Under the pieces are notes generated by a model. The model was not told where the DNA came from, searched no databases, and was given only the letters and a program-made list of their open reading frames with translations. A DNA stretch of 64,000 nucleotides from Vicinamibacterales bacterium (GTDB lineage Bacteria; Acidobacteriota; Vicinamibacteria; Vicinamibacterales; UBA8438), in the NCBI GenBank assembly GCA_965262985.1, contig OZ253576.1, positions 2,057,213 through 2,121,212 of the forward strand. Direction: 5' to 3'. Positions within the stretch are counted from its first letter, which is position 1. Every line of letters begins with the position of its first letter. Position numbers and translations under genes: made by a program. Shown one piece after another: positions 4,804-60,766 of this stretch.

Positions 4804-4969
4804 CTAGCAGCCCGTGGTGGAACCCCGCGTTGCACCGAGATTGGCGCTGCGCCCGCGTGGCAAGGCGCGACGAGGGAGCAAATTGGGGCATTTGTGACCG
4901 AGGAGCAACGCCGCCACGTGGGATGCAGCGCCAATCGAATGCAGTGGGGATTTCACCACGGGCTGCTAG
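4804..4969 (+). repeat. MITE-like palindromic intergenic element, copy A (short form, 166 bp)
   Basis: CTAGCAGCCCGTGGTG...CACCACGGGCTGCTAG forms 16-bp perfect terminal inverted repeats. The whole element folds into one long imperfect hairpin. The core is GACGAGGGAGCAAATTGGGGCATTTGTGACCGAGGAGC. Related copies lie at 39320, 43235, 48345 and 60533. Confidence 0.9.
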
Positions 4970-7230
4970 CTCCGTCCGCGGCCACGGCGGGTCTGGCGCC
5001 CGGCAGCGGCGGGACGTCCTCTGCCGGCCACCCGGTTGCGCCGCGGCCCGCGGTTTCTGTCCGATTCCCGAACGGCGTCGAGAATTTCCACCAACCCCAA
5101 ATCGACGCGGCGCCGCACCGTATCCACCCGCACCACCTGCACCGCCACCGCGTCGCCCAGCCGGTATCGCTTGCGGGTGTTCTCGCCGACGAGCGCATGG
5201 TCCGTGTCGAAAAACCGGTAGTAGTCATCGGCCATGCTCGAGATGTGCACCATCCCTTCCACGAAGTGCTCGATCAGCTCGACGAACAGTCCGAACCCGG
5301 TCACCCCGGTGACGTAGCCGGAGAACTCGTCGCCCACCTTGTCCGCCATGAAGCGCACCTTCTTCCACTGCAGAATCTCCCGCTCGGCGTCCTCCGCTCT
5401 GCGCTCCACCGTGGACGTATGACGTCCGATCTCCGGCAGCTCGTCAGCAAGTTCTTCGATCCGATCCGCCGCCGTGCCACCCTGCCGCCGCTCACGCAGC
5501 AATCGATGCACGACCAGATCCGGATAGCGGCGAATCGGCGACGTGAAGTGCGTGTAGGTTTCTGACGCCAACCCGAAATGCCCGGCGTTCACGGCGGCGT
5601 ACCGCGCCTTTTGCATGGTCCGAAGCATCAGCAGCGCCACCGGCCGTTCCTCGGGCCGTCCATGCAGACGCCGCAGCAGCGCCTGGAAGTGTCGGGGCCG
5701 CACCAGTTCGGGCGACACCCCCAGACCGTATCCCAGGCTGCTCGTGAACGCGTCGAACTCGGCCACCTTGTCCCTGTCCGGCGCCTCATGCACGCGATAC
5801 AGCGCCGGCGCCCCGCTGTCCTGCAAGTAGCGGGCGATGGTTTCGTTGGCCACCAGCATGAACTCCTCGATGATGCGATGAGCCACGTTGCGGTCCGCCG
5901 CGACGATGTCCTCGACCATTCCGGCTTCGTCGAGCACCAACTGGGTCGCCTTGAGGTCGAAGTCGATCGACCCGCGACGCACCCGCCGGTCTCTCAACCG
6001 CCGATACACCGTGTGCATCGACTCGAACATCGGCACGAGCGCGGCGTACTCGCGTGAGGTCTCCGGGTCGCCCCGATTCAGGATGGCGTCGACCGCCGTA
6101 TAGGTCATTCGCGCGGCCGAGCGAATGACTCCGTCGTGCAGTTCGAAGCGCACGACGTCGCCCGTCGGATCGATGTCCATGAGGCACGACTGCACCAGAC
6201 GGTCGACCCCGGGATTCAAGCTGCACAATCCCGTGGCCAGCGGCGTGGGAAACATGTGCAGCGCGCGGTCCGGAAAATACACGGACGTTCCGCGGGTAAA
6301 GGCGCACTCGTCGAGCGCGGTCCCCTCCTTCACGTAGTGCGCCACGTCGGCGATGTGCACGCCCAACCGGATGTGGCCGTCGGACAGCGGCTCGAGGCTG
6401 ACCGCGTCGTCGAAGTCGCGCGCCGTCTCACCATCGATTGTGACCGTCGTATGCGAGCGAAAGTCGGTGCGTCCCCGCAGATCCCCCGCCGTGATCTCGG
6501 TTCCCATCCGCTCGGCCTCCGCGGCGGCGGCGGGATCGTGCGCATCCGGAATCCGGTATTTTCTGAGAATCAACTCCGTGTCGACGCCGGGGTCTTCGAG
6601 AGCGCCCAACACCTCGATGATGTGTCCGATCGGGCCGCGCGCCGGGGTCGGCCACCGATCGATCTCAGCCACGACCATCTGGCCGGACACCGCCCCCGCG
6701 GTCGCACCACTGGCGATCTGAATGTCCATGACCACCCGCGGATCGAACGGCACCACGAATCCAACCCCGCTCTGGTCAATCTCGTAGCGGCCGACGAGAT
6801 CCTGGTTGGCGCGCTCGAGCACCCGCACGATGCGACCCTCGCTGCGCCCCTCGGCGGGTTCGACCCGCACCGTCACCCGATCGTCGTGCATCGCCTGATG
6901 CAGGTTCACGCCGGCCACGAAGATGTCCCTCTCGCCGCGCTCGACCTCATCGTCCGGCGTCACGAACCCGAAACCCCGCGGATTGACCTGGAGACGGCCA
7001 ACCACGAGATTCATCCGATCTGCCAGACCGTACCGTTGTCCACGGATACGGATCATCGCGCCGGCGTCGACAAGCTGCCGGATCTCCCGCCGAAACCGAT
7101 ACCGATCGTTCCGGGTAATGCCGAGCACACGGATGAGCTCCCTGATGGTCGCCGGATGACCCACGCGTTCCCGAATCTGTCCGAGGAGGTCACCGGCCGG
7201 CGCATCGCCCGGTCTGTCGCTGTCAGTCAT
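4966..7230 (-). CDS. rnr: Ribonuclease R (RNB family 3'-5' exoribonuclease)
   Basis: Cold-shock/OB N-terminal region, RNB catalytic domain (TIDGETARDFDDAVS, HFGLASETYTHFTSPIRRYPDLVVHR), S1 domain and a basic Arg/Gly tail. I prefer the ATG at 7230, which overlaps the upstream stop as ATGACTGA. Confidence 0.93.
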   Translation of the reverse strand: MTDSDRPGDAPAGDLLGQIRERVGHPATIRELIRVLGITRNDRYRFRREIRQLVDAGAMIRIRGQRYGLADRMNLVVGRLQVNPRGFGFVTPDDEVERGERDIFVAGVNLHQAMHDDRVTVRVEPAEGRSEGRIVRVLERANQDLVGRYEIDQSGVGFVVPFDPRVVMDIQIASGATAGAVSGQMVVAEIDRWPTPARGPIGHIIEVLGALEDPGVDTELILRKYRIPDAHDPAAAAEAERMGTEITAGDLRGRTDFRSHTTVTIDGETARDFDDAVSLEPLSDGHIRLGVHIADVAHYVKEGTALDECAFTRGTSVYFPDRALHMFPTPLATGLCSLNPGVDRLVQSCLMDIDPTGDVVRFELHDGVIRSAARMTYTAVDAILNRGDPETSREYAALVPMFESMHTVYRRLRDRRVRRGSIDFDLKATQLVLDEAGMVEDIVAADRNVAHRIIEEFMLVANETIARYLQDSGAPALYRVHEAPDRDKVAEFDAFTSSLGYGLGVSPELVRPRHFQALLRRLHGRPEERPVALLMLRTMQKARYAAVNAGHFGLASETYTHFTSPIRRYPDLVVHRLLRERRQGGTAADRIEELADELPEIGRHTSTVERRAEDAEREILQWKKVRFMADKVGDEFSGYVTGVTGFGLFVELIEHFVEGMVHISSMADDYYRFFDTDHALVGENTRKRYRLGDAVAVQVVRVDTVRRRVDLGLVEILDAVRESDRNRGPRRNRVAGRGRPAAAGRQTRRGRGRS

Positions 7231-8494
7231 GCCGCGGCGGAGTGGTCGTGTTGCCGGCGAGCAGAATCTGGAGATCACCCACGTTGGTGCCGCTCGGCCC
7301 GGTCCGTATCAGGTCGCACAGCGGATCGAAGAAGCGGTAGGCGTCATTGTTGTCGAGGTAGTCGTGCGGACCGCCGAGATGCAGCGCCCGCGCCCGTGCC
7401 AGCGTGGTGGAATCCACCAGAGCGCCTGCAGCGTCCGTCGGTCCATCCACCCCGTCGGTGCCCACGCTGGCCAACACGACAGGAGCAGCCTGACGGTCCA
7501 GGCTGGCGGCGGCGGCCAGCGCCAGCTCCTGGTTTCGCCCGCCACGGCCCTTCCCCTGCACCGTGACCGTGGTCTCGCCGGACGACACCACGCAGACGGG
7601 CCCGGACGGACATCCACGCAGGGTCAGGCTGCGAGTTACATGTGCGGCACCGGCCACGCGGGCCTCTCCGGTCAGCGGCGCCTCCATCAACGTCACCGTG
7701 TACCCGAGCCGGCGCGCCTCCGACGCCGCGCCCGCCATGGCCTGCCGGCGACTGCCGATCAGACGGAACGTCGAACGGGCCGCCGCGGGGTGACCCGGTT
7801 TCAAGGTTTCCGGGACCTCCCCGGCGGCGCCGCGCTCCATGACGTCCAGCACGCTTGCCGGCATGCGACGTCGGATAGCTGGGGCGCCGGCGATCGACAA
7901 CGCCTGACGATACGTCGTCCGATCCGGAACGGTCGGTCCAGAACCGATCACCGCCGGATCGTCCTCGACCGGCCCCACCACATCCGAAATGGCCAGTGTC
8001 AGCACGCGCCCGCGGGCGGACAGCGCCAGACGTCCTCCCTTGACCTCTGACAGGTGCTTTCTGACGCAGTTCAGCTCATGAATCGGGACTCCGGCCGACA
8101 GCAGAATCCGCGTGGCGTCAATCTTCTCCTCAAGGGTCAATCCGTCGACCGGCGCGGCCAGCAGCGCCGACGCGCCACCGGACAGCAACACTAGCACACA
8201 CGACGACGGCTCCGACTGCGCGGCGCAGCGCAGTGCAGCGCGGCCCGCCTCGACGCTGCCCGCATCCGGCAACGGATGCCCACCCTGGAGCCACGACATC
8301 CCGGCCGGCACCGGCGCGCTGCGGTCCGGCCCCACCGCGACCCCGCGGGCGACCTGAACGGTGGTCGAGATCAGCAGACCGTCGATCATCCCCGCCGCCG
8401 CCTTTCCCGCCGCAATCAGGGTCGGGGCGGCGCCGATGGCGCTCCGCACCGCCGGGTCGGCGAGCGCAACCTGCATCAGACGCCGCGGCGCCAC
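7223..8494 (-). CDS. Glycerate 2-kinase / hydroxypyruvate reductase-like protein (MOFRL family)
   Basis: GAGKAAAGM, LLSGGASAL, RKHLSEVKGGRL, GETTVTVQGKGRGGRNQELALAAA and VGTDGVDGPTDAAGA motifs. The N-terminus probably extends upstream of the first canonical start (see findings). Confidence 0.85.
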   Translation of the reverse strand: MAPRRLMQVALADPAVRSAIGAAPTLIAAGKAAAGMIDGLLISTTVQVARGVAVGPDRSAPVPAGMSWLQGGHPLPDAGSVEAGRAALRCAAQSEPSSCVLVLLSGGASALLAAPVDGLTLEEKIDATRILLSAGVPIHELNCVRKHLSEVKGGRLALSARGRVLTLAISDVVGPVEDDPAVIGSGPTVPDRTTYRQALSIAGAPAIRRRMPASVLDVMERGAAGEVPETLKPGHPAAARSTFRLIGSRRQAMAGAASEARRLGYTVTLMEAPLTGEARVAGAAHVTRSLTLRGCPSGPVCVVSSGETTVTVQGKGRGGRNQELALAAAASLDRQAAPVVLASVGTDGVDGPTDAAGALVDSTTLARARALHLGGPHDYLDNNDAYRFFDPLCDLIRTGPSGTNVGDLQILLAGNTTTPPRHD

Positions 8495-38003: not shown

Positions 38004-38280
38004 TGGCAATCTACGATAGGGGCCGTTCTCCAGCCTTGTCAATAGGGTACCTCGGATGGGAGGGTCGCGCCATGCCGCCGATCCAGGTGCGACGCGGGGT
38101 CCTGCCATGGGCTGCCGGCAGGTCAGCCGGCGTCGAGCGGCGGCAACTGCTCGCGGCGCCGGTCCGCGTCGAGAGACCGCACGTCGAGTCCAGTCTCGCA
38201 CTCGTCACAGAGCAACTCGAAGATCGATCGATCGCTGAGGGTGTTACATCCGTGGCGCGACCAGGGGCAGTTGCGATACG

Positions 38281-38490
38281 ATGCTGGCGGCCATGACGAC
38301 TGACAGGACCGACTTCAAGATCGCGACCGAGTCACGCGGCGCACGCTGGGTCGCGTGGGTAACCACGAACGAGAGCGACACACCGCTCGGTTCGGTGCTG
38401 CTGATGGGCCGGACACAGGCCGAGGCAGAGGCCAACGCGCACGCCTGGGCCGACAAGCTGGCCAGCGACCCCGTGCTGATGCGACTCTGA
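38281..38490 (+). CDS. Small hypothetical protein (HicB/UPF0150-like pattern; inference)
   Basis: 69 aa with high GC3. The pattern FKIATESRGARWVAWV...G.TQAEAEANAHAWADKL fits a beta-beta-beta-alpha antitoxin-like fold. Confidence 0.5.
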   Translation: MLAAMTTDRTDFKIATESRGARWVAWVTTNESDTPLGSVLLMGRTQAEAEANAHAWADKLASDPVLMRL

Positions 38491-38507
38491 CCGGGACGGG
38501 GCCTCGT

Positions 38508-38768
38508 TCACACCTGAACCGCCGCAAACCGGCCGCCCCTGCGATCCGTGGGCAGCAGCGACCCCGCCGTATGGTGGACGGTTGTGCAGTGCGGCCCTTT
38601 CACCTCCAACGCGACGACATCCAGACCGAGCGCTCTGGCGACGTAGCCGCCCGCCACGCACCCGCAGGGCAGGGCTGCGAATTCCCGGAGTTCGAAAAGC
38701 GGCCCCAGTGACGACTGCTCATCCCGTGCTGCCGGCATCGCTCCCCCCAGGTTGGCATGTTGGCTCAT
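38508..38768 (-). CDS. Small hypothetical Cys/His-containing protein
   Basis: 86 aa, moderately high GC3, LPCGCVAGGY...KGPHC. It converges on the 38281 ORF with a 17-bp gap. No SD sequence and no known family. Confidence 0.4.
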   Translation of the reverse strand: MSQHANLGGAMPAARDEQSSLGPLFELREFAALPCGCVAGGYVARALGLDVVALEVKGPHCTTVHHTAGSLLPTDRRGGRFAAVQV

Positions 38769-38967
38769 GTGTGATTAGACGCGGGAGCGCGGCATTTGGT
38801 CCCTCCACACCCGCCGCCTTGTGGAAAACGTGTGGATGATGTGTGCATCGCCTGTGAATCGAATGTCGAATGAAATTTTTTCTGCGCGAGGAAGACGCGC
38901 CATTGCGAGGCGCGCCGCGATGTGCACCCGTCTTCGTCCTTTCCTTCGCTTGGCGACCCTCGGGCAA

Positions 38968-39234
38968 ATGGCTAAGATTTCATACGTCACCTCGGCAACC
39001 CTGACCCCCTGCAGTATCGTGAACGTCCAGCGCATCGAACACGTCATCAACGGCCGCGCCTATCAGATTGAGGCGATGCTTGTCGATCCGGATCGATGGC
39101 GCGCGTATCTGGTCAGTGTTCCCGGCGGCTCGACGGCGCTCATGCCGTTCTACGGCGCGACCCCCGAACTGGCGGTGCAACAGCTCACTGCCTGGCTGAC
39201 TCTGGCCCACCAGGCGCCCACAATTCCGGTATAG
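38968..39234 (+). CDS. Small hypothetical protein, possible paralog of 38281..38490
   Basis: The internal ATG at 38968 gives 88 aa (MAKISYVTSATL...). DRWRAYLVSVPGGSTALMPFYGATPELAVQQLTAWLTL parallels ARWVAWVTT...GRTQAEAEANAHAWADKL. Confidence 0.5.
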   Translation: MAKISYVTSATLTPCSIVNVQRIEHVINGRAYQIEAMLVDPDRWRAYLVSVPGGSTALMPFYGATPELAVQQLTAWLTLAHQAPTIPV

Positions 39235-39319
39235 TACGAACTCGAACGCCGTGGCGCCTCACGTTCGGGCGACAGGCTGACCTGAACCGTACCGGCTCAC
39301 GCGGCGTTGCGCCAATCTC

Positions 39320-39536
39320 ATGGCAGTCCGTGATGAATCCCCGCGTTGCACCGGGATCTGGTCGTCACAATTCCGCGTACGGCCGTTGCAAAGCGCGACG
39401 AGGGAGCAAATTGGGAGATTTGTGACCCCGGCAATCAGAAGCCCAGCGCCGCCCGACGCGGGACAGGGAGCAAATTGGGAAATTTGCGACCGCAGCGCCG
39501 ATCGAATGCAGCGGGGCTTTCACCGCGGGCTGCTCG
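39320..39536 (+). repeat. MITE-like palindromic intergenic element, copy B (long form, two core hairpins, decayed ends)
   Basis: GCAGTCCGTGATGAATCCCCGCGTTGCACCGGG...GACGAGGGAGCAAATTGGGAGATTTGTGACC...CAGGGAGCAAATTGGGAAATTTGCGACCGCAGCGCCGATCGAATGCAGCGGGGCTTTCACCGCGGGCTGC. Confidence 0.85.
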
Positions 39537-40585
39537 GGCTCTCGTTGATCGCGGCACTGTTCTGGACGCCGCTCCAGGAATCAACCGCCGCACAACCGGC
39601 GCGCGTACGCCTGATCACGACCGGCGGCACCATCTCGAACCGGGCGGGAATCCGGCTGTCTCCGCAAGAACTGCTCGCCACGGTGCCGGACCTTGACGAT
39701 CTCGTCGAGGCCGAGGCCGAGGAATTCGCCAATGTCGCAAGCAGCGCGCTGACCCTGGACCAGTGGATGCAACTGTCGCGCCGGATCAACGACCTGTTCC
39801 GGACGGATCGCACACTGGCCGGCATCGTGGTGACGAGCGGCACCGACACGCTGGAGGAATTCGCCTACTTCCTGCACCTGACCGTCAGGGACGCGCGGCC
39901 CGTGGTCGTCGTCGGATCGATGCGCCGTCCCGACACGCTGGCGTATGACGGCGCCGCAAATCTGAGACAGGCGTTGCGCATGGCCGGCGACCCCGGCTCG
40001 CACGGTCGAGGGGTGCTGGTCGTCTTCAATGACGAGATCGACTCGGCGCGCGACGTGACCAAGACCAGCACCTCGCACCTGCAGGCGTTCGAGTCGCGGG
40101 GCTACGGGGTGCTGGGCCACGCTGCCCGCGATCGCATTGTGTATTATCGCCGGTTGGAACGGCGTCACACCGTGACGAGCGAGTTCGACGTCGACCGGAT
40201 TCCCCGCCTTCCGCGGGTGGACATTGTCATGGCGTATCAGGGCGCCTCGGGCGATCTGATCCGCGCCGCGGTGAATCGGGGCGCCGCCGGCATCGTGGTG
40301 GCCGGAGCCGGAGCCGGAGCGACCAGCGCCGGACAGGGCGACGCGATCGCCTATGCATCCGAGCGAGGCGCGGTGGTGGTGATGACGTCACGTACGGGCC
40401 GCGGGCGTATCGTCCCGCGCGGCGCCACGCTGCCCGAACCTGATGACAATCAGGACCTGCCTGCCCGCCGCCAGCGCATCGCAGGCGACGATCTTGCCCC
40501 GGTCAAGGCGCGGGTACTGCTGATGCTCGCACTGACAGTCTCGAAGGACCGTGACGAGATCCAACGGATGTTCGGAGAGTACTGA
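39506..40585 (+). CDS. L-asparaginase (type II-like, probably secreted)
   Basis: LITTGGTISN, SGTDTLEEFAYFL and the rest of the asparaginase core. The ATG at 39506 gives a signal-like N-terminus (MQRGFHRGLLGLSLIAALFW...). That ATG lies inside repeat copy B, so the start is uncertain. Confidence 0.88.
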   Translation: MQRGFHRGLLGLSLIAALFWTPLQESTAAQPARVRLITTGGTISNRAGIRLSPQELLATVPDLDDLVEAEAEEFANVASSALTLDQWMQLSRRINDLFRTDRTLAGIVVTSGTDTLEEFAYFLHLTVRDARPVVVVGSMRRPDTLAYDGAANLRQALRMAGDPGSHGRGVLVVFNDEIDSARDVTKTSTSHLQAFESRGYGVLGHAARDRIVYYRRLERRHTVTSEFDVDRIPRLPRVDIVMAYQGASGDLIRAAVNRGAAGIVVAGAGAGATSAGQGDAIAYASERGAVVVMTSRTGRGRIVPRGATLPEPDDNQDLPARRQRIAGDDLAPVKARVLLMLALTVSKDRDEIQRMFGEY

Positions 40586-40597
40586 CCCGCACCAGCC

Positions 40598-40635
40598 CGG
40601 ACCAGGCAACCACACGGGTTGCCCCGCAGGCGCGG
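40598..40635. repeat. REP-like hairpin unit (single copy of the 37-bp family)
   Basis: GGACCAGGCAACCACACGGGTTGCCCCGCAGG, with stem GGCAACC/GGTTGCC. It sits between the convergent stops at 40585 (+) and 40644 (-). Near-identical units form the tandem array at 51709. Confidence 0.75.
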
Positions 40636-40643
40636 CGGTGCCG

Positions 40644-41717
40644 CTACGCAATGCCGGCGCCAAGGACGCCGACGTACACGGCGTAGAGCGACTGGCTGGC
40701 GGTCATGAACAGGCGGTTGCGTCTGGTGCCGCCGAAGCAGACGTTGGCGCAGCGCTCGGGAAGCCGAATCGCCCCGATCAGGTCGCCGTCCGGCGCCGTA
40801 ACGAGCACTCCATCGCCCGCGCCGGCCCAGACGTTGCCATCGACATCGCACCTGATGCCGTCGGCCGCGACCACGTTCTCGGACCCCGGTGCGTGCAGTT
40901 CCGCATGCCGGCGGCCGCGCGCGAGCCGGGTGCCCTCGACGTCGAAAACGCGAATCTCACGGCCCGACCCGGTATCCGCCACATACAGCCGGCTGTAGTC
41001 AGGTGAGAAGCAGAGACCGTTCGGACCACCCGGCTCATCGGTCACGAGCGTGACCTGGCCGTTCCCCGGATCGACTCGGTATACGGCCGGGGGGGTCTCG
41101 GATTCGGCGCGGAACCCCTCATAGTCACCGCGAATGCCGTAGGGCGGATCGCTGAACCAGATGCCCCCATCCGGATGCACCACGGCGTCGTTCGGCGAAT
41201 TGAGCCGTTTGCCGTCATACCGGTCGGCGATGACGGTGACATCGCCGTTCTGCTCATACCTGGCGACCCGCCGGCCGCCATGCTCGCAGGAGAGCTGGCG
41301 TCCTTCGCGGTCGAACGTGTTGCCGTTGCTGTGACCCGAGGGGCTCCGAAACACCGTGACCCGTCCGTCGTCCTGAATCCATCGGTGCTGGACGTTGTTG
41401 GGGATGTCACTCCAGACCAGATACTGTCCTACCCCGTTCCACGCCGGTCCCTCGGCCCACATGGTGCCGATGTGCAGCCGCCTGATCGGCGTATTGAAGA
41501 GAATGTAGCGGCGAAACCGGGGATCGAGTGCGATGAGATCGGGGTCCGGATAGGGCAACGGGTTCTGCCCGGACCAGTCTCGCGGTGCGTAGGGCGGTAC
41601 TTGCGGCGCCTGCTGCCGCGCCCATGCCGGCGCGGCGATGCTCCCGGCGAATGCCGTGCCAAGAAACGCCCGGCGTGTCCACGCCGAATTCCTGTCGTTC
41701 CGCTGCTGATCCGCCAT
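40644..41717 (-). CDS. SMP-30/gluconolactonase/LRE family protein with a Tat-type signal
   Basis: RRAFLGTAFAGSIAAPAWA twin-arginine signal, six-bladed propeller motifs, NGLCFSPDYSRLYVADTG. ATG at 41717. Confidence 0.85.
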   Translation of the reverse strand: MADQQRNDRNSAWTRRAFLGTAFAGSIAAPAWARQQAPQVPPYAPRDWSGQNPLPYPDPDLIALDPRFRRYILFNTPIRRLHIGTMWAEGPAWNGVGQYLVWSDIPNNVQHRWIQDDGRVTVFRSPSGHSNGNTFDREGRQLSCEHGGRRVARYEQNGDVTVIADRYDGKRLNSPNDAVVHPDGGIWFSDPPYGIRGDYEGFRAESETPPAVYRVDPGNGQVTLVTDEPGGPNGLCFSPDYSRLYVADTGSGREIRVFDVEGTRLARGRRHAELHAPGSENVVAADGIRCDVDGNVWAGAGDGVLVTAPDGDLIGAIRLPERCANVCFGGTRRNRLFMTASQSLYAVYVGVLGAGIA

Positions 41718-41811
41718 GGCTGTCTGTCTCCGGCGCCTCACGTGCGGGGCGCGCCGCGGTGCCTGCCGTCCGCATTCCGGTTCGGAGCGGGGTGGACATG
41801 TCGTCGCACGA

Positions 41812-43179
41812 TCATGGCTGTCCACCGGCCGCGGAAATCCGGTAGAGCTTCGTGGCGGTCCGGATGATCAGGCTGTCGCGCGCAACCGCCGGCGTGGACA
41901 GCGTCATCTCGTCGAGCGAGTTCCGCCCCAGCACCGCGAACTCGGGGCCGGCCTGGATGACGAACGTATCGCCATCCTCGCTCAACACGAAGAGCTTGCC
42001 GTTGTAGGCCCACGGCGACGCGGTGAACAGGGTCCCCGCCGTAATCCGCCGGCGCTGGTAGACCTCCTGTCCGGTGCGTGCGTCATACGCCATCAGGATG
42101 CCCCGATCGAGCAACGTGTAGTGATAGTCGCCGTACACGATGGACGACGGATTGTAGGACCCCAACTGCGGGTGCGACCACACGACGTAGTCGTTGCTGG
42201 TCGATCCCTCGGGCAACGTGATGTCACCGCTGGCGCCGGGACGGATCGCATACACGGGACGATTCTCGTCAGCGACATACCCGGAGTTGATATACAGGAG
42301 CCCGTGGTCGGAGAACGGAGTCGGGATCACGAGGGTCGACATGCCGGTCAGGCGCCAGAGCAGCGTTCCGTCCAGTCCGTAGGACCGGACACCGTTCCGA
42401 CCGGTCGTGACGACCTCGGTCCGCACGTCGTTCTCCCACACGAATGGCGTCGACCAGTTCGATCCCTCGTCCCGGTCGGTCCGCCACAGTTCGTTGCCGG
42501 TCGCGGCGTCGAATGCGGCGACCCACGACTGCTCTTCGTTGTCGTTGACGACATACAACCGGCCGTCGTGCAGCACCGGCGACGACGCCGCGCCCCATTC
42601 GCGACGCGGCAGCCATTCGAAATCGACCGACCAGACCAGCCGGCCGTCGAAATCGACGGCGAACATCCCGATATCCGCCATGTAGACATACACGCGTTCT
42701 CCGTCGGTGACCGGCGTCTCCGATGCGAACGTGCTTTTCTGATGCGTCGGCAATGCGGGAACGGATTCGTGCAAGGTCTGCTCCCAGCGGACCGCGCCGG
42801 TCTCGAAATCGATGTCGTAGAGCACCCATTGCAGCGGCTCGGTCTGCGTGGTGATGTAGGCCGCGGTCATGGCTCCGCCAAGCGACCGCGCACGGTAGTT
42901 CTCAATCGGCTGGATGGGCACTTCCGGCCCGCTGACCGCGGTGGAGGTCAGCACGAACACATGGTCGCCCCAGACGATTGGGGAGGCCCACCCCCGCCCC
43001 GGCATATCGATTTCCCAGGCAACGTTTTCACCCGGACCCCACCTGTCGGGCAACGCCGGATTGTCGGCCACGACCCCGGCGGCCACACCACGGAACTGCG
43101 GCCAGTTGTCCTGAGCGGTCACCGGAGATGCGCTCAACCAGACCAGTCCCAGAGCAAGCAGCGTCAGCCGAATCGTCAT
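41812..43179 (-). CDS. PQQ-like beta-propeller repeat protein (secreted)
   Basis: GGAGAGGAA SD, signal peptide MTIRLTLLALGLVWLSASPVTAQ, the NWPQFRG motif, and repeated W/G propeller blades. Confidence 0.85.
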   Translation of the reverse strand: MTIRLTLLALGLVWLSASPVTAQDNWPQFRGVAAGVVADNPALPDRWGPGENVAWEIDMPGRGWASPIVWGDHVFVLTSTAVSGPEVPIQPIENYRARSLGGAMTAAYITTQTEPLQWVLYDIDFETGAVRWEQTLHESVPALPTHQKSTFASETPVTDGERVYVYMADIGMFAVDFDGRLVWSVDFEWLPRREWGAASSPVLHDGRLYVVNDNEEQSWVAAFDAATGNELWRTDRDEGSNWSTPFVWENDVRTEVVTTGRNGVRSYGLDGTLLWRLTGMSTLVIPTPFSDHGLLYINSGYVADENRPVYAIRPGASGDITLPEGSTSNDYVVWSHPQLGSYNPSSIVYGDYHYTLLDRGILMAYDARTGQEVYQRRRITAGTLFTASPWAYNGKLFVLSEDGDTFVIQAGPEFAVLGRNSLDEMTLSTPAVARDSLIIRTATKLYRISAAGGQP

Positions 43180-43234
43180 TTCCTCTCCTCGAGATCGCCG
43201 GAATCAATCAACACACCGGCGGTTTGGCGGTATT

Positions 43235-43399
43235 CTAGCAGTTCGTGGCAGAACCCCGCGTGCACCGAGCGTAGCGCGGCGCCCGGCTGGCAAGGCGAGA
43301 CGAGGGAGCATATTGGGTATATGCGACCGAGGAGCAACGCCGCCCAGGCGGGATGCCGCGCAGCGCGAATGCCGCGGGGCTTCCGTCACGGACTGCTCG
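43235..43399 (+). repeat. MITE-like palindromic intergenic element, copy C (short form, 165 bp)
   Basis: CTAGCAGTTCGTGGCAGAACCCCGCGTGCACCGAGCG...GACGAGGGAGCATATTGGGTATATGCGACCGAGGAGCAACGCCGCC...GCGAATGCCGCGGGGCTTCCGTCACGGACTGCTCG. Confidence 0.9.
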
Positions 43400-43443
43400 C
43401 AGTTCGTGGTAGAACCCCGCGTGCACCGAGCGCGGCGCGGCGA
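43400..43443 (+). repeat. Partial tandem duplicate of the element's 5' module
   Basis: CAGTTCGTGGTAGAACCCCGCGTGCACCGAGCG repeats positions 43239-43271 almost exactly, immediately after the copy C 3' end. Confidence 0.8.
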
Positions 43444-43460
43444 GAACGACACAGGACCTC

Positions 43461-44585
43461 ATGAACAGACGGATCTCGGGCGCCGCGCTGACGTGCGCCC
43501 TTCTCTCGTTCGGCGCGGCCGGCAATGCGAACGCCCAGCCGCCATCCGATCACTTCGTGCCGTCCCGGCCCGACACGCTGAGTTGGGGCTGGTTTCCCCT
43601 GGACAAACCGCCGGTCCTGACCATCGTGTCCGGTGAGACGGTCCTGGTCGACACGCTCTCTCACGCCGGCTCGACCCAGAATGACCACCCGGCCGTCTCA
43701 CTCGGCGCGTTGGGAGTCGAACCTGACGAGATCCTGAAGGACGTGATCGACTTCTGGGCGTCGCGAGAATCACGCCCACGGGACGGACGCAGCGGGCACG
43801 TCATCACCGGACCAATTGCCATCGCGGGGGCGGAACCTGGCGACATGCTCGAAGTACAGGTGCTCGAGCTGACGATCCGGGCGCCGTACGGCATCAACAA
43901 CACCGGTCCGACGAGCGGCGTGTTCGCACGCGATTACCCGGGGTCGCGCCCCGCCGACAGACCTCGTGACATTGCGAATGCACGCCATCTCATCCGCACC
44001 GGCGCGGTCGACGGCGTCGAGGTCGCCCTGTTCTCCGACGGCGTCCAGGTTCCGCTCGCGCCGTTCATGGGCATCATGGCGGTCGCGCCGACGCCGGTGG
44101 TCGGTGAACCGGGCGTCACCGTACCGGGCGTGCAGGCATCGCGGCCGCCGGGCGCCTTTGGGGGCAACCTGGACGTCAAGGACCTGACCGCCGGCAGTAC
44201 GCTGTATCTGCCGGTCTTCCATCCCGGCGCCCTCTTCTACGTGGGCGACCCGCACGCGGCGCAGGGGGACGGAGAGGTCAGCGGAACCGCCATCGAGCAG
44301 TCCCTGTCCGGCCGCTTCCGTTTCGTGTTGCACAATAACAGGCCGATCAGGATGCCCTGGGCCGAGACCGACACCCACTACATCCTGATGGGCATCGACC
44401 TGGACCTGAACCGCGCACTCCAGCAGGCGGTGGACGAAGTGGTCGCATTCCTGGTGGCGGAGAAGGGGCTCACCCCGACCAAGGCGGTCTCGCTGGCGAG
44501 TATCGCGGTCGACTTTCAGGTGGCGGAAGCGGTCGATCTGACCCAACTCGTGACGGGAAAAATTCCCAAACATATCTTCCGATGA
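43461..44585 (+). CDS. Acetamidase/formamidase family protein (secreted)
   Basis: Signal peptide and FmdA/AmdA motifs (GPIAIAGAEPGDMLEV, GGNLDVKDLTAGSTLYLPVFHPGALFYVGDPHAAQGDGEVSGTAIE). Confidence 0.9.
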   Translation: MNRRISGAALTCALLSFGAAGNANAQPPSDHFVPSRPDTLSWGWFPLDKPPVLTIVSGETVLVDTLSHAGSTQNDHPAVSLGALGVEPDEILKDVIDFWASRESRPRDGRSGHVITGPIAIAGAEPGDMLEVQVLELTIRAPYGINNTGPTSGVFARDYPGSRPADRPRDIANARHLIRTGAVDGVEVALFSDGVQVPLAPFMGIMAVAPTPVVGEPGVTVPGVQASRPPGAFGGNLDVKDLTAGSTLYLPVFHPGALFYVGDPHAAQGDGEVSGTAIEQSLSGRFRFVLHNNRPIRMPWAETDTHYILMGIDLDLNRALQQAVDEVVAFLVAEKGLTPTKAVSLASIAVDFQVAEAVDLTQLVTGKIPKHIFR

Positions 44586-45502
44586 CACGAGCCATGACAC
44601 GAGCAACCACCCTCGGCACGTTACTGGCCGCCGCCCTGATCACGGTCGCGGCGATGGGCGGCATGGCGCAGGAGCAGCACACGGTCACCGTGCAGAGCAT
44701 GGATGTCCGTGAGAATCTCTACGTCATCAGCGGCGGCGGCGGGCACACCGCCGCGCTCGTGACGGAGAACCAAGGGGTCGTCCTTGTCGACACCAAACTC
44801 GCCGGCTGGGGACCGTCGATTCTGACGACGATTCAGGCCATCACCGATCAGCCGGTGACCACGATCATCAACACCCATACCCATGGGGACCATGTGGGCG
44901 GCAACGTCGATTTTCCTGCGACGGTCACGGTCGTCGCTCACGAGCGAGCCGCCGACCGCATGGCCGGCATGGAGGCGTTTGCCGGAGCAGGCGCCGAGTT
45001 TCTGCCGGACCGCACATATTCGAACCGGCTGACGTTGTTCGACGGCCGCGACCAGATCGACCTCTACCACTTCGGCGCGGGCCACACCGACGGAGACACG
45101 GTGGTCGTCTTTCCAGCGCTCGGTACGGCGCATCTGGGCGATCTGTTCGCGTTCATGGGTCCCCCATACATCGATGTGAGCAACGGTGGCAGCGGCGTGG
45201 CGTATCCCGACACCCTCGACCGGATCGTCACCTCGGTGCAAGGTGTCCGGCGGGTGATTCCCGGCCACATCCCTCCGCCTGCGGGCAGCCCGATGCGGGG
45301 CTGGACCACGTGGGAAGACCTGCAGGAGTACGCTCGCTTCAACCGCGAGTTCCTCGACTCGGTGCGCGGGTCACGCGATGCCGGACGCACGGTCGACGAG
45401 GCGGTCGCGGCGCTGGACCTCTGGGAACGGTATCCCGCCTACGACAGGGCCCGGGCCGACGCCAACGTCCAGGCGATCTACGACGAGCTGGGATCCCGAT
45501 GA
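44582..45502 (+). CDS. MBL-fold metallo-hydrolase (secreted)
   Basis: INTHTHGDHVGGN metal site and a signal peptide. Its start overlaps the formamidase stop as ATGA. Confidence 0.88.
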   Translation: MTRAMTRATTLGTLLAAALITVAAMGGMAQEQHTVTVQSMDVRENLYVISGGGGHTAALVTENQGVVLVDTKLAGWGPSILTTIQAITDQPVTTIINTHTHGDHVGGNVDFPATVTVVAHERAADRMAGMEAFAGAGAEFLPDRTYSNRLTLFDGRDQIDLYHFGAGHTDGDTVVVFPALGTAHLGDLFAFMGPPYIDVSNGGSGVAYPDTLDRIVTSVQGVRRVIPGHIPPPAGSPMRGWTTWEDLQEYARFNREFLDSVRGSRDAGRTVDEAVAALDLWERYPAYDRARADANVQAIYDELGSR

Positions 45503-45557
45503 GACGTCAGGCGACCGGGTCGGCCCGGCCGGCGGCATCCGCGACGGTAACGAACAC

Positions 45558-46892
45558 ATGAAGACACCTGCGCACATGATCCGGATAGTGACTGCGAGCG
45601 CCGTCCTGCTCACCCTTGGCGTGTACCCGATGTCCGCCGACGACTGGCCCGAATTCCGTGGCAAGGGTCGGATGGGCGTCTGGGCCGAATCTGACATTCT
45701 CGAGACCTTTCCCAGCGGCGGCCTCACCGTGCGCTGGCGCACACCGATTCATCACGGCTTCTCCGGACCGGCCGTCGCGGACGGCCGCATCTTCGTGACC
45801 GACTTCGAACGTGCGCGCGGGCTCGACGGCATCGAGCGCATTCTGTGCCTGGACGAGGAGACCGGCGACATTCTGTGGACCCAAAGCTGGGAAGCCAGCT
45901 ACCTCGGCATCTCGTGGGATGAGGGTCCTCGCGCCACCCCGACCGTGGACCGCGACCAGGTCTACGCTGTCGGCGCCAGCGGCGTCATGACCGCGCTGCG
46001 GGTCGACACCGGCGAGGTGTTGTGGCGTACACGCTTCGTCGAGGACTGGGGCGCCGAAGTGCCGCAGTGGGGGTTCAGCAGTGCGCCGCTCGTCGACGGC
46101 GACCGTGTCATCACGCTCGTCGGCGGAACACCGGACGCGAAGGTCGTCGCCTTCGACCGGACCACCGGCGCGGAGGTCTGGCGAGCGCTGTCCTCGGTCG
46201 AGTCTGGCGCCGGCGTGGGAACGCCGATCATCACCGAGGCCGGCGGGGTCCGGCAACTCGTGATCTGGCATCCGCTGGCGGTCTCGTCACTCGATCCGGT
46301 CACCGGCGAGGTCTACTGGGAGCAGCCGTTCGAAGTCGGATATGACATGACCGTCGCCACCCCGGTGCGGCAGGGATCGGATCTGTTCGTGACCACGTTC
46401 TACGACGGGCCAATGATGCTGGGCCTCGACAACGACCGGCCGGACGCCGAGATGCGCTGGCGAGGCAACAGCAACAGCGAGATCCTGACCGACGGTCTGC
46501 ACGCGGTGATCGGCACCCCGATCATTCAGGGCGGCTACATCTACGGGTTCGGTTCCTACGGACAGTTGCGTTGCCTGGTCGCCGCCACCGGCGAGCGGGT
46601 GTGGGAAAGCCAGGAAGCGACCGGCGAACGCGCGCGGTGGGCAAGCGCGTTCATGGTGCAGCACGAAGACCGCGTGTTCATCAACAACGACCGCGGCGAT
46701 CTGATCATTGCCAGATTGTCACCGGCGGGCTATGAGGAAATCAGCCGGACGCCGTTGATCGCGCCGACCTCGCGCCCCGGCAACCGCCGCGAACTCAGCT
46801 ACGTCAACTGGTCGCACCCTGCCTACGCCAACCGGCACATCATCGCCAGAAACGACGAGGAGATCATCTCGGCCTCGCTCGCCGCGCGGTGA
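45558..46892 (+). CDS. PQQ-like beta-propeller repeat protein (secreted), paralog of 50038..51384
   Basis: ATG at 45558, a signal peptide, DDWPEFRGKGRMGVW, and C-terminal NWSHPAYANRHIIARNDEEI. By eye it is about half identical to the 50038 gene product. Confidence 0.85.
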   Translation: MKTPAHMIRIVTASAVLLTLGVYPMSADDWPEFRGKGRMGVWAESDILETFPSGGLTVRWRTPIHHGFSGPAVADGRIFVTDFERARGLDGIERILCLDEETGDILWTQSWEASYLGISWDEGPRATPTVDRDQVYAVGASGVMTALRVDTGEVLWRTRFVEDWGAEVPQWGFSSAPLVDGDRVITLVGGTPDAKVVAFDRTTGAEVWRALSSVESGAGVGTPIITEAGGVRQLVIWHPLAVSSLDPVTGEVYWEQPFEVGYDMTVATPVRQGSDLFVTTFYDGPMMLGLDNDRPDAEMRWRGNSNSEILTDGLHAVIGTPIIQGGYIYGFGSYGQLRCLVAATGERVWESQEATGERARWASAFMVQHEDRVFINNDRGDLIIARLSPAGYEEISRTPLIAPTSRPGNRRELSYVNWSHPAYANRHIIARNDEEIISASLAAR

Positions 46893-48344: not shown

Positions 48345-48411
48345 GCAGTCCGTGGCGCAGCCGCACGCAACACCGAGCGAATGGCGCGGGGCTGTCACCA
48401 CGAATCGTCAG
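48345..48411 (+). repeat. MITE-like element, copy E (internally deleted mini form, about 67 bp)
   Basis: GCAGTCCGTGGCGCAGCCGCACGCAACACCGAGCGAATGGCGCGGGGCTGTCACCACGAATCGTCAG matches the 5' arm plus the 3' arm of the full copies and lacks the central core. Confidence 0.7.
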
Positions 48412-50037: not shown

Positions 50038-51384
50038 CTACGGCGCCTTCGCCAACGAGCGCCGCACGATTTCCCGGTCGTTGCGGGCGACGATGTGGGT
50101 ATTCGCATAGGCGGGATGCGACCAGTTCACGACGTCGCCAGACCGGCGGCGACGCACGTACGGATGGGTCGGCTCGATCAGCCGGGTGCGACTGAGCTCC
50201 CGGTAACCGCCGGGCGACAGCTCGGCGATGACCAGGTCGCCGGTGTCCGTGTTGATGAAATAGCGGTCCTCGTGCCGCACGAAGAACGCGGTCGCCCAGT
50301 TGGTGCGCTCGCCGATCAGGGCGTCGGTCTCCCAGACACGACGCCCGGTCTCGAGTTCGAGGCACCGCAGCAGCCCGTGGCCATCGACGCCGTAGACGTA
50401 GTCACCGTCGATGACCGGCGTGCTGATGACCGAGTTCAGGGTGTTGAAATCGAACCCGTACTCCGGGTCGCTTTCGCCGACCCCTTCCCAGAGCACCCGC
50501 GCTCCGGGGACACGTTCGTCGAGCAACAGCATCCTGGCCCCGCCGTACTGCGACGTGAAAAACAGGTGCGGCCCGCTGCGTACGGCGGTCGCCGGGTTGA
50601 TCCCCATATCGACGATGTGCCGTACCTCCCAGTAGACCTCCCCCGTTTCAGGATTCAACGAGCTGATGTCGCGAGGATGCCAGGCGATGAGCTGCCGTGC
50701 GCCGCCGGCCTCGACGATGATCGGCTGGCTGTAGCCGGGCTCCCAGTCCGACGACAGGGCGCGCCAGATCTCCTCGCCGGTATGTTTGTCGAACGCCATC
50801 ATCTTGGCGTCAGGTTCGCCCCCCACGAGACAGATCAACCGCTCGCCGTCAACCAGCGGTGCGCCGGCCATTCCCCACGACGGGACCGCCGTATTGAAGT
50901 CCTCGGGAAAGTTCTTCTGCCACAGCACCTGTCCATTCTCGACGTGCAACGCCAGCAGATTCCCCATCGCGCCGAGCACGTACACGCGGTCGCCGTCGAC
51001 GGTCGGGGTAGCCCGGGGGCCGATGGCGTATACGAGCTGCAGGCCGGCATAGTCGGTCTCCCACTCCCGCGACCACAACACCTCACCGGTCTGCTCGTCG
51101 AGCGCTAGCGCACGTTCGACCACGGCCGTCGAGCGAGGGTCCGGCCTCCGTGCGTCGGTGATGAACACCCGGCCGCCAGCGACCGCCGGACCCGAATAGC
51201 CGCCATGTATCGGTGTGCGCCACACCACCGGGAGACCTCCGGCGGGGAACGTCTCGAGAAGTCCGGTCTCCGTCAGCACCCCGCGCCGGCCGGCGCCGCG
51301 CCACTCGGGCCAGTCGTTCGCCCGCACCGTCTGGACCAATCCGCACAGGCACAGTACGGCGACCCAACGTGCCATTCGTGTCAT
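50038..51384 (-). CDS. PQQ-like beta-propeller repeat protein (secreted), paralog of 45558..46892
   Basis: MTRMARWVAVLCLCGLVQTVRA signal peptide, NDWPEWRGAGRRGVL, and C-terminal NWSHPAYANTHIVARNDREI. Confidence 0.85.
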   Translation of the reverse strand: MTRMARWVAVLCLCGLVQTVRANDWPEWRGAGRRGVLTETGLLETFPAGGLPVVWRTPIHGGYSGPAVAGGRVFITDARRPDPRSTAVVERALALDEQTGEVLWSREWETDYAGLQLVYAIGPRATPTVDGDRVYVLGAMGNLLALHVENGQVLWQKNFPEDFNTAVPSWGMAGAPLVDGERLICLVGGEPDAKMMAFDKHTGEEIWRALSSDWEPGYSQPIIVEAGGARQLIAWHPRDISSLNPETGEVYWEVRHIVDMGINPATAVRSGPHLFFTSQYGGARMLLLDERVPGARVLWEGVGESDPEYGFDFNTLNSVISTPVIDGDYVYGVDGHGLLRCLELETGRRVWETDALIGERTNWATAFFVRHEDRYFINTDTGDLVIAELSPGGYRELSRTRLIEPTHPYVRRRRSGDVVNWSHPAYANTHIVARNDREIVRRSLAKAP

Positions 51385-51708: not shown

Positions 51709-51832
51709 GGACCGGGCAACCACAAGGGTTGCCCCTACGGAGACGAGACCGGGCAACCACAAGGGTTGCCCCTACGGGGACGGGGTCGCGCAACCACAAG
51801 GGTTGCCCCTACGGGGACGGGGTCGCGCAACC
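51709..51832. repeat. Tandem array (about 3.3 units, 37-bp period) of a double-hairpin repeat
   Basis: GCAAC recurs at 51716, 51753, 51790 and 51827. Unit: GGGCAACCACAAGGGTTGCCCCTACGGGGACGGGGTCGC, with stems GGCAACC/GGTTGCC and CCCC/GGGG. It lies between convergent genes. Confidence 0.92.
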
Positions 51833-60532: not shown

Positions 60533-60766
60533 CTTAGGAGCCCGTGGTGAAACCGCGCGTCGCACCGAGCGTGGCGAGGCGCCCGCGTGGCAAGGCGTGA
60601 CGAGGGAGCATATTGGGCATATGTGACCGAGGAGCCAAGCGGATCGGCAGGCTTTGATGCCGATCCGCAGGCCGTAGCGCTGTCCAGGCGGGGCAGGGAG
60701 CAAATTGGGAAATTTGCGACCGCATCGCCGCGCGAATGCCGCGGGGCTTTCACCACGGACTCCTAG
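60533..60766 (+). repeat. MITE-like palindromic intergenic element, copy D (long form, 234 bp, two cores plus an extra hairpin)
   Basis: CTTAGGAGCCCGTGGTGAAACCGCGCGTCGCACCGAGCG...GACGAGGGAGCATATTGGGCATATGTGACCGAGGAGCC...GCGGATCGGCAGGCTTTGATGCCGATCCGC...CAGGGAGCAAATTGGGAAATTTGCGACC...GGGGCTTTCACCACGGACTCCTAG. Confidence 0.9.

Follow-up and report, generated by a model that had tools for sequence, protein, structure and literature searches.

Here we describe a repeat found within a 64,000-nt stretch of DNA (hereafter the window; 66% G+C) from a Vicinamibacterales bacterium (contig OZ253576.1, positions 2,057,213 to 2,121,212). A first-pass annotation of the window had flagged a hairpin at 4869-4906, the stems of which appeared to change in a compensatory manner between copies. 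This 38-nt feature is the apical stem-loop of a conserved folded module of about 90 nt, located at the tip of a non-coding mobile repeat of about 164 nt. The flagged copy, referred to as copy A, is situated between the start of selB (4788) and the stop codon of RNase R (CTA at 4966-4968, minus strand). A canonical copy is a single long imperfect palindrome flanked by TA and is composed, from base to tip, of CTAG ends, outer arms of about 37 nt, P2 to P4 with CAAG and AAC bulges, a helix of tandem G·A pairs and a 6-bp hairpin. The features of copy A are as follows:

4805..4968, plus strand: copy A, canonical, with one core (left TA 4805-4806, right TA 4967-4968, body G4807 to C4966)
4843..4932, plus strand: conserved inner domain, delimited by the (near-)invariant columns of a 43-copy alignment, pair counts and nhmmer 'inner' matches
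4869..4877, plus strand: 5' strand of the tandem G·A helix (GA-C-GA-GG-GA), invariant in 43/43 copies
4878..4895, plus strand: flagged apical hairpin, from the sequence and the arm-pairing test
4896..4906, plus strand: opposite (3') strand of this helix (GA-CC-GA-G-GA-GC); the invariant AAC bulge comes next

The inner domain is built from the stems P2 (GGCGCTGC/GCAGCGCC), P3 and P4, together with two invariant bulges (CAAG and AAC), the helix of G·A pairs and the hairpin at its apex. In the G·A helix of copy A (5'-C-GA-C-GA-GG-GA / GA-CC-GA-G-GA-G-3'), G stands opposite A in three 2x2 loops. The apical hairpin consists of a 5' arm GCAAAT (4878-4883), a loop TGGGGC (4884-4889) and a 3' arm ATTTGT (4890-4895), with a G:T wobble as the closing pair. 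Folded as RNA, the plus strand of copy A reaches -119.7 kcal/mol (z = -12) and the minus strand -104.5 kcal/mol.

The core form proposed earlier, (G/C)AGGGA-stem-TGGGn(n)-stem-GACC, is borne out by six cores in the window, all on the plus strand. The pattern AGGGA-GCANAT-TGGGn(1-4)-ATNTGY-GACC matches at 4873, 39401, 39465, 43303, 60603 and 60695, on the plus strand only, compared with none expected from 100 dinucleotide shuffles of the window. These cores sit in four full copies, which are accompanied by one partial copy and one coreless remnant. Besides copy A, the copies are:

39323..39533, plus strand: copy B, with two cores (39401-39427 and 39465-39491); its flanking TAs are degenerate (TG, TC)
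43236..43397, plus strand: copy C, canonical, with one core (43303-43328), between divergent genes
43399..43444, plus strand: partial tandem copy holding the left arm and the 5' strand of P2 only (repeat family D11)
48345..48409, plus strand: coreless remnant with the left arm fused directly to the right arm and the inner domain deleted (families D3 and D5)
60535..60765, plus strand: copy D, with two cores (60603-60628 and 60695-60721), flanks tTAg / cTAg, between convergent genes

The two-core copies have acquired an extra GGGA-hairpin-GACC unit at the bulge that separates P3 from P2. The stem versions were found as listed by the first-pass annotation: GCAAAT/ATTTGT in copy A and in the first core of B, GCAAAT/ATTTGC in the second cores of B and D, GCATAT/ATATGC in copy C and GCATAT/ATATGT in the first core of D. 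The two other double changes are likewise present, at the termini (CAGCC..GGCTG in copy A, GAGCC..GGACTC in copy D) and in an inner stem (GCGCTGC/GCAGCGC in copy A, GCGCGGC/GCCGCGC in copy C). Judged on the window alone, the A/T stem change could reflect a single event, because copy C and the first core of D are related.

Copies in other genomes and metagenomes

Related copies were gathered by exact sequence patterns in two scans, and genes around them were called crudely, from third-position G+C. The first scan covered one genome per species with the hairpin pattern as bait and returned at least 90 loci, nearly all from Vicinamibacterales genomes assembled from metagenomes; chromosome OZ244838.1 carries at least 25 copies. 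The second scan addressed metagenomes with the flanks only as bait (AAGGCGNGANGAGGGA ... GACCGANGAG), leaving the hairpin unconstrained, and returned at least 120 loci. In total, the scans yielded more than 200 copies, and the element is present in many copies both in Vicinamibacterales and elsewhere in Acidobacteriota. We found no similar DNA in viral contigs and plasmids, and nothing specific to the element in the literature on Acidobacteria or Vicinamibacter repeats. Searches against Rfam 15, at gathering as well as permissive thresholds, returned no match in the window or in 15 diverse loci, and around copy A just two chance-level matches (E > 1).

The RNase R gene of the window has its closest counterparts among Vicinamibacterales/Acidobacteriota proteins, and a copy with 100% identity is found on a contig of 6.4 Mb. 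An actinomycete origin, considered in view of the 66% G+C, was dropped once related sequences had pointed to Vicinamibacterales. Over 748 bp, a contig from a genome labelled Chloroflexota (L015) matches a Vicinamibacterales contig (L039) at 99.9% identity; this probably reflects an error of binning and not the presence of the element in a second phylum.

Selection on the fold of a single strand

Among about 100 copies from related genomes, the variable position of the flagged stem is occupied by A:T, T:A, G:C and C:G pairs, and the genome sample contains the stems GCAAAT/ATTTGT, GCATAT/ATATGY, GCAGAT/ATCTGY and GCACAT/ATGTGT, together with a few mismatched intermediates. The A/T change seen in the window is one instance of full covariation across relatives. 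RNAalifold predicted 49 pairs on 43 full copies, 37 of them with compensatory changes; once the pair at columns 84-99 was added, 94.3% of cells were paired over the resulting 50 pairs, compared with 79.5% in shuffles. The covariation score of the 43 copies was 0.438 against 0.165 in shuffles, and fell to about 0.07 when structures were slid by 1-3 columns. None of 500 shuffles reached the values of the alignment for any of five measures.

The metagenome sample gave a similar picture with the hairpin left out of the bait. Across 102 distinct hairpins of 16-22 nt, a hairpin's own arms paired at 5.42 of 6 anchored positions, compared with 3.80 ± 0.09 for permuted arms. The stems include GCATAC/GTATGT, GAATAC/GTATTT, GCGATGCC/GGCATCGT and GCTGAGC/GCTCAGC, and the loops are diverse. 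An isolated pair between the G·A tandems, also free of bait, is Watson-Crick in 100/101 cases (G:C 59, C:G 36, A:T 4, T:A 1, C:C 1), and the Watson-Crick pairs interspersed in the G·A helix covary (alignment columns 72-110 and 75-107). Since the isolated pair covaries, the purine-rich strands must face each other in a continuous helix. Overall, covariation spans the hairpin, the whole 70-bp stem and the isolated G·A-flanked pair, and lends strong backing to the earlier suggestion that a secondary structure or a protein-binding hairpin is selected, as far as structure is concerned.

The constraint is specific to one strand. In paired columns, G:T or T:G combinations outnumber A:C or C:A by 189 to 40, three positions being fixed wobbles, and in the hairpin only the counts are 81 and 15. 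The plus strand is more stable than its complement in 42/43 copies, with RNA and DNA parameters alike; on the opposite strand the G·A tandems would read C·T. The same bias is found at short evolutionary distance: in seven copies of one subfamily, all from one species-level lineage (copy A and six copies of OZ244838.1), pairing survives in 22 of 27 departures from the consensus, 15 times through a plus-strand G:T and 7 times through a double change, and A:C occurs about twice. These data show that selection acts on how one single strand folds. The annotation had named gene conversion between the arms as the process that could by itself explain the paired changes. The excess of G:T over A:C rules out that correction between the arms acts alone, and gene conversion is contradicted by the family-wide conservation of the very mismatches that it would erase, namely the three G·A tandems and the fixed G:T wobbles.

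A fixed G·A helix between variable arms and a variable hairpin

Conservation and variation are distributed unevenly along the element. The outer arms belong to more than 20 families that cannot be aligned with one another, yet they are always paired and of constant length: in each subfamily, the left arm is the reverse complement of the right arm over 25-35 nt, and the TA-to-TA length is 161-165 nt in 39/49 copies spanning more than 25 unrelated arm families. Beyond the first G, the arms hold 0.1-0.5 bit of information per position. In pairwise comparisons of all copies the arms differ at 43% of positions and the apical domain, about half of whose columns lay outside the bait, at 9%; within one species-level lineage the arms differ by 7.6% and the apical domain shows 0 differences in 1113 comparisons.

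Within the apical domain, the purine-rich helix below the hairpin is the conserved part. Family-wide it reads 5'-C-GA-N-GA-GG-GA / GA-CC-GA-N'-GA-G-3', nearly invariant and continuous, whereas the flagged stem varies freely provided that pairing is kept. The first-pass annotation took the hairpin as the selected part and stated that its loop always starts with TGGG. The first view has to be moved one helix down, as neither the stem nor the loop of the hairpin is conserved; the second holds within this clade but not in the wider family, where loops such as CGGGA, CGGCA, TGGGC and GTTT are found among others. A coding role for the element is ruled out by the varying hairpin length and the covarying stems.

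Individual copies decay, and many are truncated, coreless or carry foreign hairpins at the apical position; 'solo arms' are truncated copies. Two kinds of enlarged element were also noticed. A class of about 243-278 nt occurs in metagenome loci (L121, L145, L156, L158, L184, L192, L201 and others); it has arms of the same kind, which enclose one inner domain in sense orientation, a short CCCTCCGGG hairpin and, inverted, a second, diverged version of the domain without the G·A motif, and it can be folded as a Y or as one 135-bp hairpin. In L065 (6250-6500) and L043 (2740-2800), the interior is enlarged by tandem hairpin units of about 20 nt (GCAGAATTCAGCG...), bringing the element to up to 390 nt; in this way, other small palindromes use the element as a scaffold.

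Several known motifs were considered for the core and set aside. A kink-turn was rejected, as the AAC bulge is two Watson-Crick pairs away from the first G·A tandem and the tandems lie in symmetric 2x2 loops; a hammerhead-like core was dropped because the G·A pairs run into GG:CC and not into a junction. The ATG in GGGATGC is replaced in 5/43 copies and is too distant from GAGGAG for a Shine-Dalgarno sequence and start codon. G-quadruplex formation and pairing with the tRNA CCA end were abandoned given that the loop is not conserved in the wider family, and a sigma-54 promoter and an IHF site were also dropped as explanations of the core.

Insertion at TA within CTAG

Empty sites were found for two of the window copies. 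Copy A is absent from locus L211, where RNase R is 98% identical and 15 nt separate it from selB (site ggagCTAGggcg). This empty site contains a single CTAG that includes the RNase R stop codon (TAG), and the window reads ggagCTAG[CAGCC...GGCTG]CTAGggcg. Copy B is absent from locus L023 of OZ244838.1, which is syntenic with window positions 38005-46222 at 88-96% identity and has the empty site ...cctgaTAgggctctcg...; in the same locus, the ortholog of copy C lacks its 3' arm. The flanking TA lies within CTAG on the left side of 40/49 copies and on the right side of 36/49, about 70-80% overall, and the terminal TAG is the stop codon of the flanking gene in 19/36 copies. Where the outer bases are unequal (tTAg...cTAg, gTAg...cTAa), a 2-bp duplication of TA fits better than a 4-bp one. 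The element is a recently mobile miniature element that targets TA in CTAG. Hence the earlier contention that the pattern is not the decay of a dead transposon stands with respect to structural selection, yet the element is a transposon, and the empty sites of A and B mark it as recently mobile.

Copy B is in frame and stop-free at the 5' end of a gene (39320..40585) for a secreted-looking protein. The ancestral ATG of this gene, seen in L023, is ACG in the window, and an ATG at 39506 in the 3' arm of the copy would give MQRGFHRGLLGLSLIAALFW...; copy B may therefore supply a new start codon to its host gene. Elsewhere, two copies (L043 2621-2826 and L045 6713-6883) lie upstream of the same glycosyltransferase-like gene, 75 and 10 nt from its start, in genomes that are only about 73-78% identical at that locus, which reflects either an old shared insertion or repeated targeting of one intergenic region.

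The copies show no preferred orientation with respect to flanking genes (11 sense, 8 antisense, 13 convergent, 8 divergent). A scan revealed no promoter- or terminator-like site in or beside copies A and D, nor a GC-rich hairpin followed by a T run. Relative to the chromosome, all five window copies (4805, 39323, 43236, 48345 and 60535) are on the plus strand, and the copies of OZ244838.1 form 7 orientation runs against 12.5 expected (computed by hand), with minus copies at 0.2-0.58 Mb, plus copies at 0.69-2.05 Mb and predominantly minus copies thereafter. Within 8-kb loci the orientation is mixed (about 8 same, 6 different). As GC skew and third-position skew of the sampled loci are too noisy to place replichores, origin or terminus, we treat the clustering along OZ244838.1 as a lead only.

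Candidate mobilizing enzymes

A motif search of the fetched loci revealed two IS630-family elements (Pfam DDE_3) of about 1 kb, at L077 6292-7317 and L017 ~6706-7720. Both have an A-run frameshift site and a TA duplication in cTAg, and the L077 element has landed precisely in the terminal CTAG of a repeat copy. The target agrees with that of IS630, which duplicates TA in CTAG (PMC2577343, Table 1, citing Tenzen and Ohtsubo 1991). Genes of the Y1/HUH type were not detected by motif search in 1.37 Mb of fetched loci plus the window, and none adjoins a copy. Long-range inverted repeats around cores amounted to the class of about 270 nt only, with no autonomous parent, and no repeated segment above 350 bp among the loci was of insertion-sequence type.

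The window also contains long inverted repeats (45640-46882 and 50051-51317) at 70-72% identity, which are probably two diverged paralogous genes in opposite orientation.

Proposed mechanism of propagation

With little better than even confidence, we favor a reading in which a transposase that cuts at TA moves the miniature repeat in trans and the G·A core serves as a platform for a protein that reads it single-stranded. The most parsimonious candidate would be an enzyme of the IS630/Tc1-mariner type, given that these genomes harbor insertion sequences with the same target. The G·A helix and its capping hairpin would form the recognition platform of a predicted protein partner, and the role of the hairpin would be structural, closing and positioning the platform. 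Reading would take place while the plus strand is single-stranded, either as a DNA hairpin extruded during replication or transposition or as RNA. The platform would be needed for continued proliferation, so that lineages losing it cease to spread; selection would act on propagation, because the constraint is independent of genomic context and old copies decay.

Several observations weigh against this proposal. No transposase with matching ends was found: the ends of the IS630-family elements (AAGCGCTTTTCA in L017 and GCGCGTTTTTCA in L077) are unlike the arms GTGGAGTGTCC and GTGGACTGTAAC in the genomes of L017 and L077, with one insertion sequence sampled per genome. A transposase that reads ends would be expected to conserve them, and the arms hold 0.1-0.5 bit per position. 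We know of no need for a one-strand fold in a cut-and-paste enzyme acting on double-stranded DNA. No protein partner recurs beside the copies, as clustering of neighboring genes gave only large housekeeping or paralogous families. Insertion without duplication, beside or inside CTAG, would give the same junctions. Finally, pattern-based collection inflates the apparent conservation of the bait parts, for which the two baits constraining different parts serve as a control.

We also consider it possible, albeit doubtful, that a predicted protein reads the G·A apical module on one strand, DNA or RNA, and acts about 67-70 nt down an arbitrary stem at CTAG. If this were true, the importance of the terminal repeats would lie solely in forming a ruler-like helix, the module would constitute a structured nucleic-acid motif that is new, widespread and bound by a protein of its own, and this would represent a new way to move or maintain small repeats.

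An unlikely explanation is 'peel and paste' of a single strand, in which a structure-specific enzyme, of the HUH/Y1 type known from IS200/IS605 and REP/RAYT or of another type, moves the plus-strand DNA hairpin. The enzyme would attach to the apical domain and cleave a set distance away, where the stem begins, with CTAG serving both as the target and as the 3' end of the element itself and with no duplication. The strand-specific constraints, the conserved core and arms constrained by pairing and length only would all agree with such a process, and the junctions fit the absence of duplication equally. The same is true of the plus orientation of 5/5 window copies, the clustered orientation on OZ244838.1 (7 runs vs 12.5), the difference of the arms from the IS630 ends found, and the repeated occupation of the apical loop position by GTAG-type REP (repetitive extragenic palindrome) hairpins, known substrates of such enzymes. 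However, known members of the IS200/IS605 and REP/RAYT families lack both terminal inverted repeats and TA-flanked ends, the motif search described above gave no Y1/HUH gene in the loci and window or beside copies, orientation is mixed within 8-kb loci, GC skew is too noisy for replichore placement, and the unequal flanks (tTAg / cTAg, gTAg / cTAa) fit a 2-bp TA duplication well.

More improbable still, the repeat might be a host-domesticated RNA element, that is, a cis-acting stabilizer, processing site or regulator site in mRNAs, with a host function conserving the module; RNase III, an L7Ae-like protein or a GGA-binding protein such as CsrA would be candidate regulators. Copies do lie in untranslated regions, often abutting stop codons, the 165-nt hairpin has a very high stability in RNA form, both G:U wobbles and tandem G·A pairs are characteristic of RNA motifs, and the bacterial repeats Correia and ERIC affect mRNA fate (PMC2229807). 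Yet a strand-specific module shows no orientation bias to flanking genes, the element lacks a promoter and its arms, where one would have to reside, are not conserved, individual old copies degenerate or have only one half left, and presence or absence varies between near-identical genomes. A multicopy small RNA gene, each copy of which would encode a trans-acting structured RNA with the arms as terminal stem, resembles the element in its variable helices, conserved loops and non-canonical pairs, but is very unlikely given the lack of promoter, terminator and Rfam match, the insertion polymorphism with its TA/CTAG target, and the copies inside coding starts and on stop codons. Lastly, absence of structural selection, with palindrome arms correcting each other by hairpin-templated repair or gene conversion around a core conserved as the copies are young, is hardly credible: template switching can homogenize palindromes and copies within a genome are young (arms differ by 7.6%), but the tandem G·A pairs and fixed wobbles persist, a symmetric process would not be expected to favor G:T over A:C, and the core is kept between subfamilies with saturated arms (43% vs 9% in the apical domain).

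The element raises the testable question of whether some bacterial repeats depend on a single-stranded structure instead of end sequence. It provides a new, well-supported motif of three tandem G·A pairs with a variable hairpin cap, with more than 200 natural variants for binding and probing. Moreover, it is abundant in Vicinamibacterales, a major and little-studied soil group, where it lands on stop codons and in gene starts and therefore shapes gene ends and misleads gene callers.

Comparison with known systems

Hairpins of one strand, with mismatches that distinguish the strands, are also found in the non-autonomous, multicopy REP/REPIN-RAYT and IS200/IS605 systems. REPs, unlike the present element, are 20-40 nt long with a GTAG or CGTC tag, whereas here the core is flanked by GAGGGA and GACC, and neither a Y1 motif nor a recurrent neighboring gene was found by the searches described above. 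IS200/IS605 elements lack inverted termini and TA ends and insert, without duplication, 3' of a fixed tetranucleotide in one orientation relative to replication. Inverted termini are present here; a left-hand CTAG and one at the 3' end would be compatible with this family, and orientation is clustered on OZ244838.1 yet locally mixed, with replichores unplaced.

The window contains a separate GTAG-tagged REP, with three tandem 37-nt units (GTAGGGGCAACCCTTGTGGTTGCCC) at 51714-51812 (minus strand) between convergent genes and a further occurrence at 40603-40648. This REP hairpin, single or in tandem, replaces the apical hairpin in several OZ244838.1 copies, and the junction ...GGTTGCCCTGTTCGTCAGCCGGAGCAAC recurs. 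REPs in apical position were located at the following sites:

L061 ~700-830
L065 6155-6544
L066 837-915 and 7163-7300
L078 1254-1436
L083 ~5200-5400

These sites suggest that REPs insert preferentially into the apical loop, which is perhaps single-stranded.

Similarly, integron attC sites combine free sequence with conserved structure, act as a folded single strand and rely on unpaired bases for strand choice. In contrast to the present element, they have conserved ends (RYYYAAC/GTTRRRY) and a variable center, belong to cassettes beside an integrase and are not scattered by TA insertion. Here the ends are CTAG plus variable sequence, and copies are scattered beside unrelated genes.

The element shares with IS630/Tc1-mariner transposons a target TA within CTAG and, probably, a 2-bp duplication (PMC2577343). 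[quoted passage not shown] A MITE derived from IS630/Tc1-mariner would in addition share its ends with a co-resident IS630-family element; the TA in CTAG is present, the ends are not shared with the one insertion sequence sampled per genome, and in contrast to this group, including derivatives such as RUP, no autonomous element with these arms or this core was found.

Overall, the element has the defining features of, and belongs with, the TA-flanked bacterial miniature inverted-repeat elements, namely Correia/NEMIS of Neisseria, ERIC of enterobacteria and RUP of pneumococcus (PMC2229807). Like these, it is 100-200 bp long and gene-free, has many intergenic copies with TA at both ends, and forms a long stem-loop from a transcript or single strand, with some copies fused to reading frames (PMC2229807). 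The differences concern what is conserved. Correia, ERIC and RUP have conserved terminal repeats, whereas here the ends are hypervariable, the central module is conserved and many arm families surround one core. Internal motifs of those families, for instance the IHF site of Correia, are read as double-stranded DNA, whereas the present core, with its non-canonical pairs, is strand-specific. Stowaway-type elements of plants, which are IS630/Tc1-mariner derivatives with conserved 10-bp termini and a varying interior, are likewise the reverse of the present element. In summary, the usual pattern of miniature transposons is inverted, with the ends free and the central fold fixed on one strand only.

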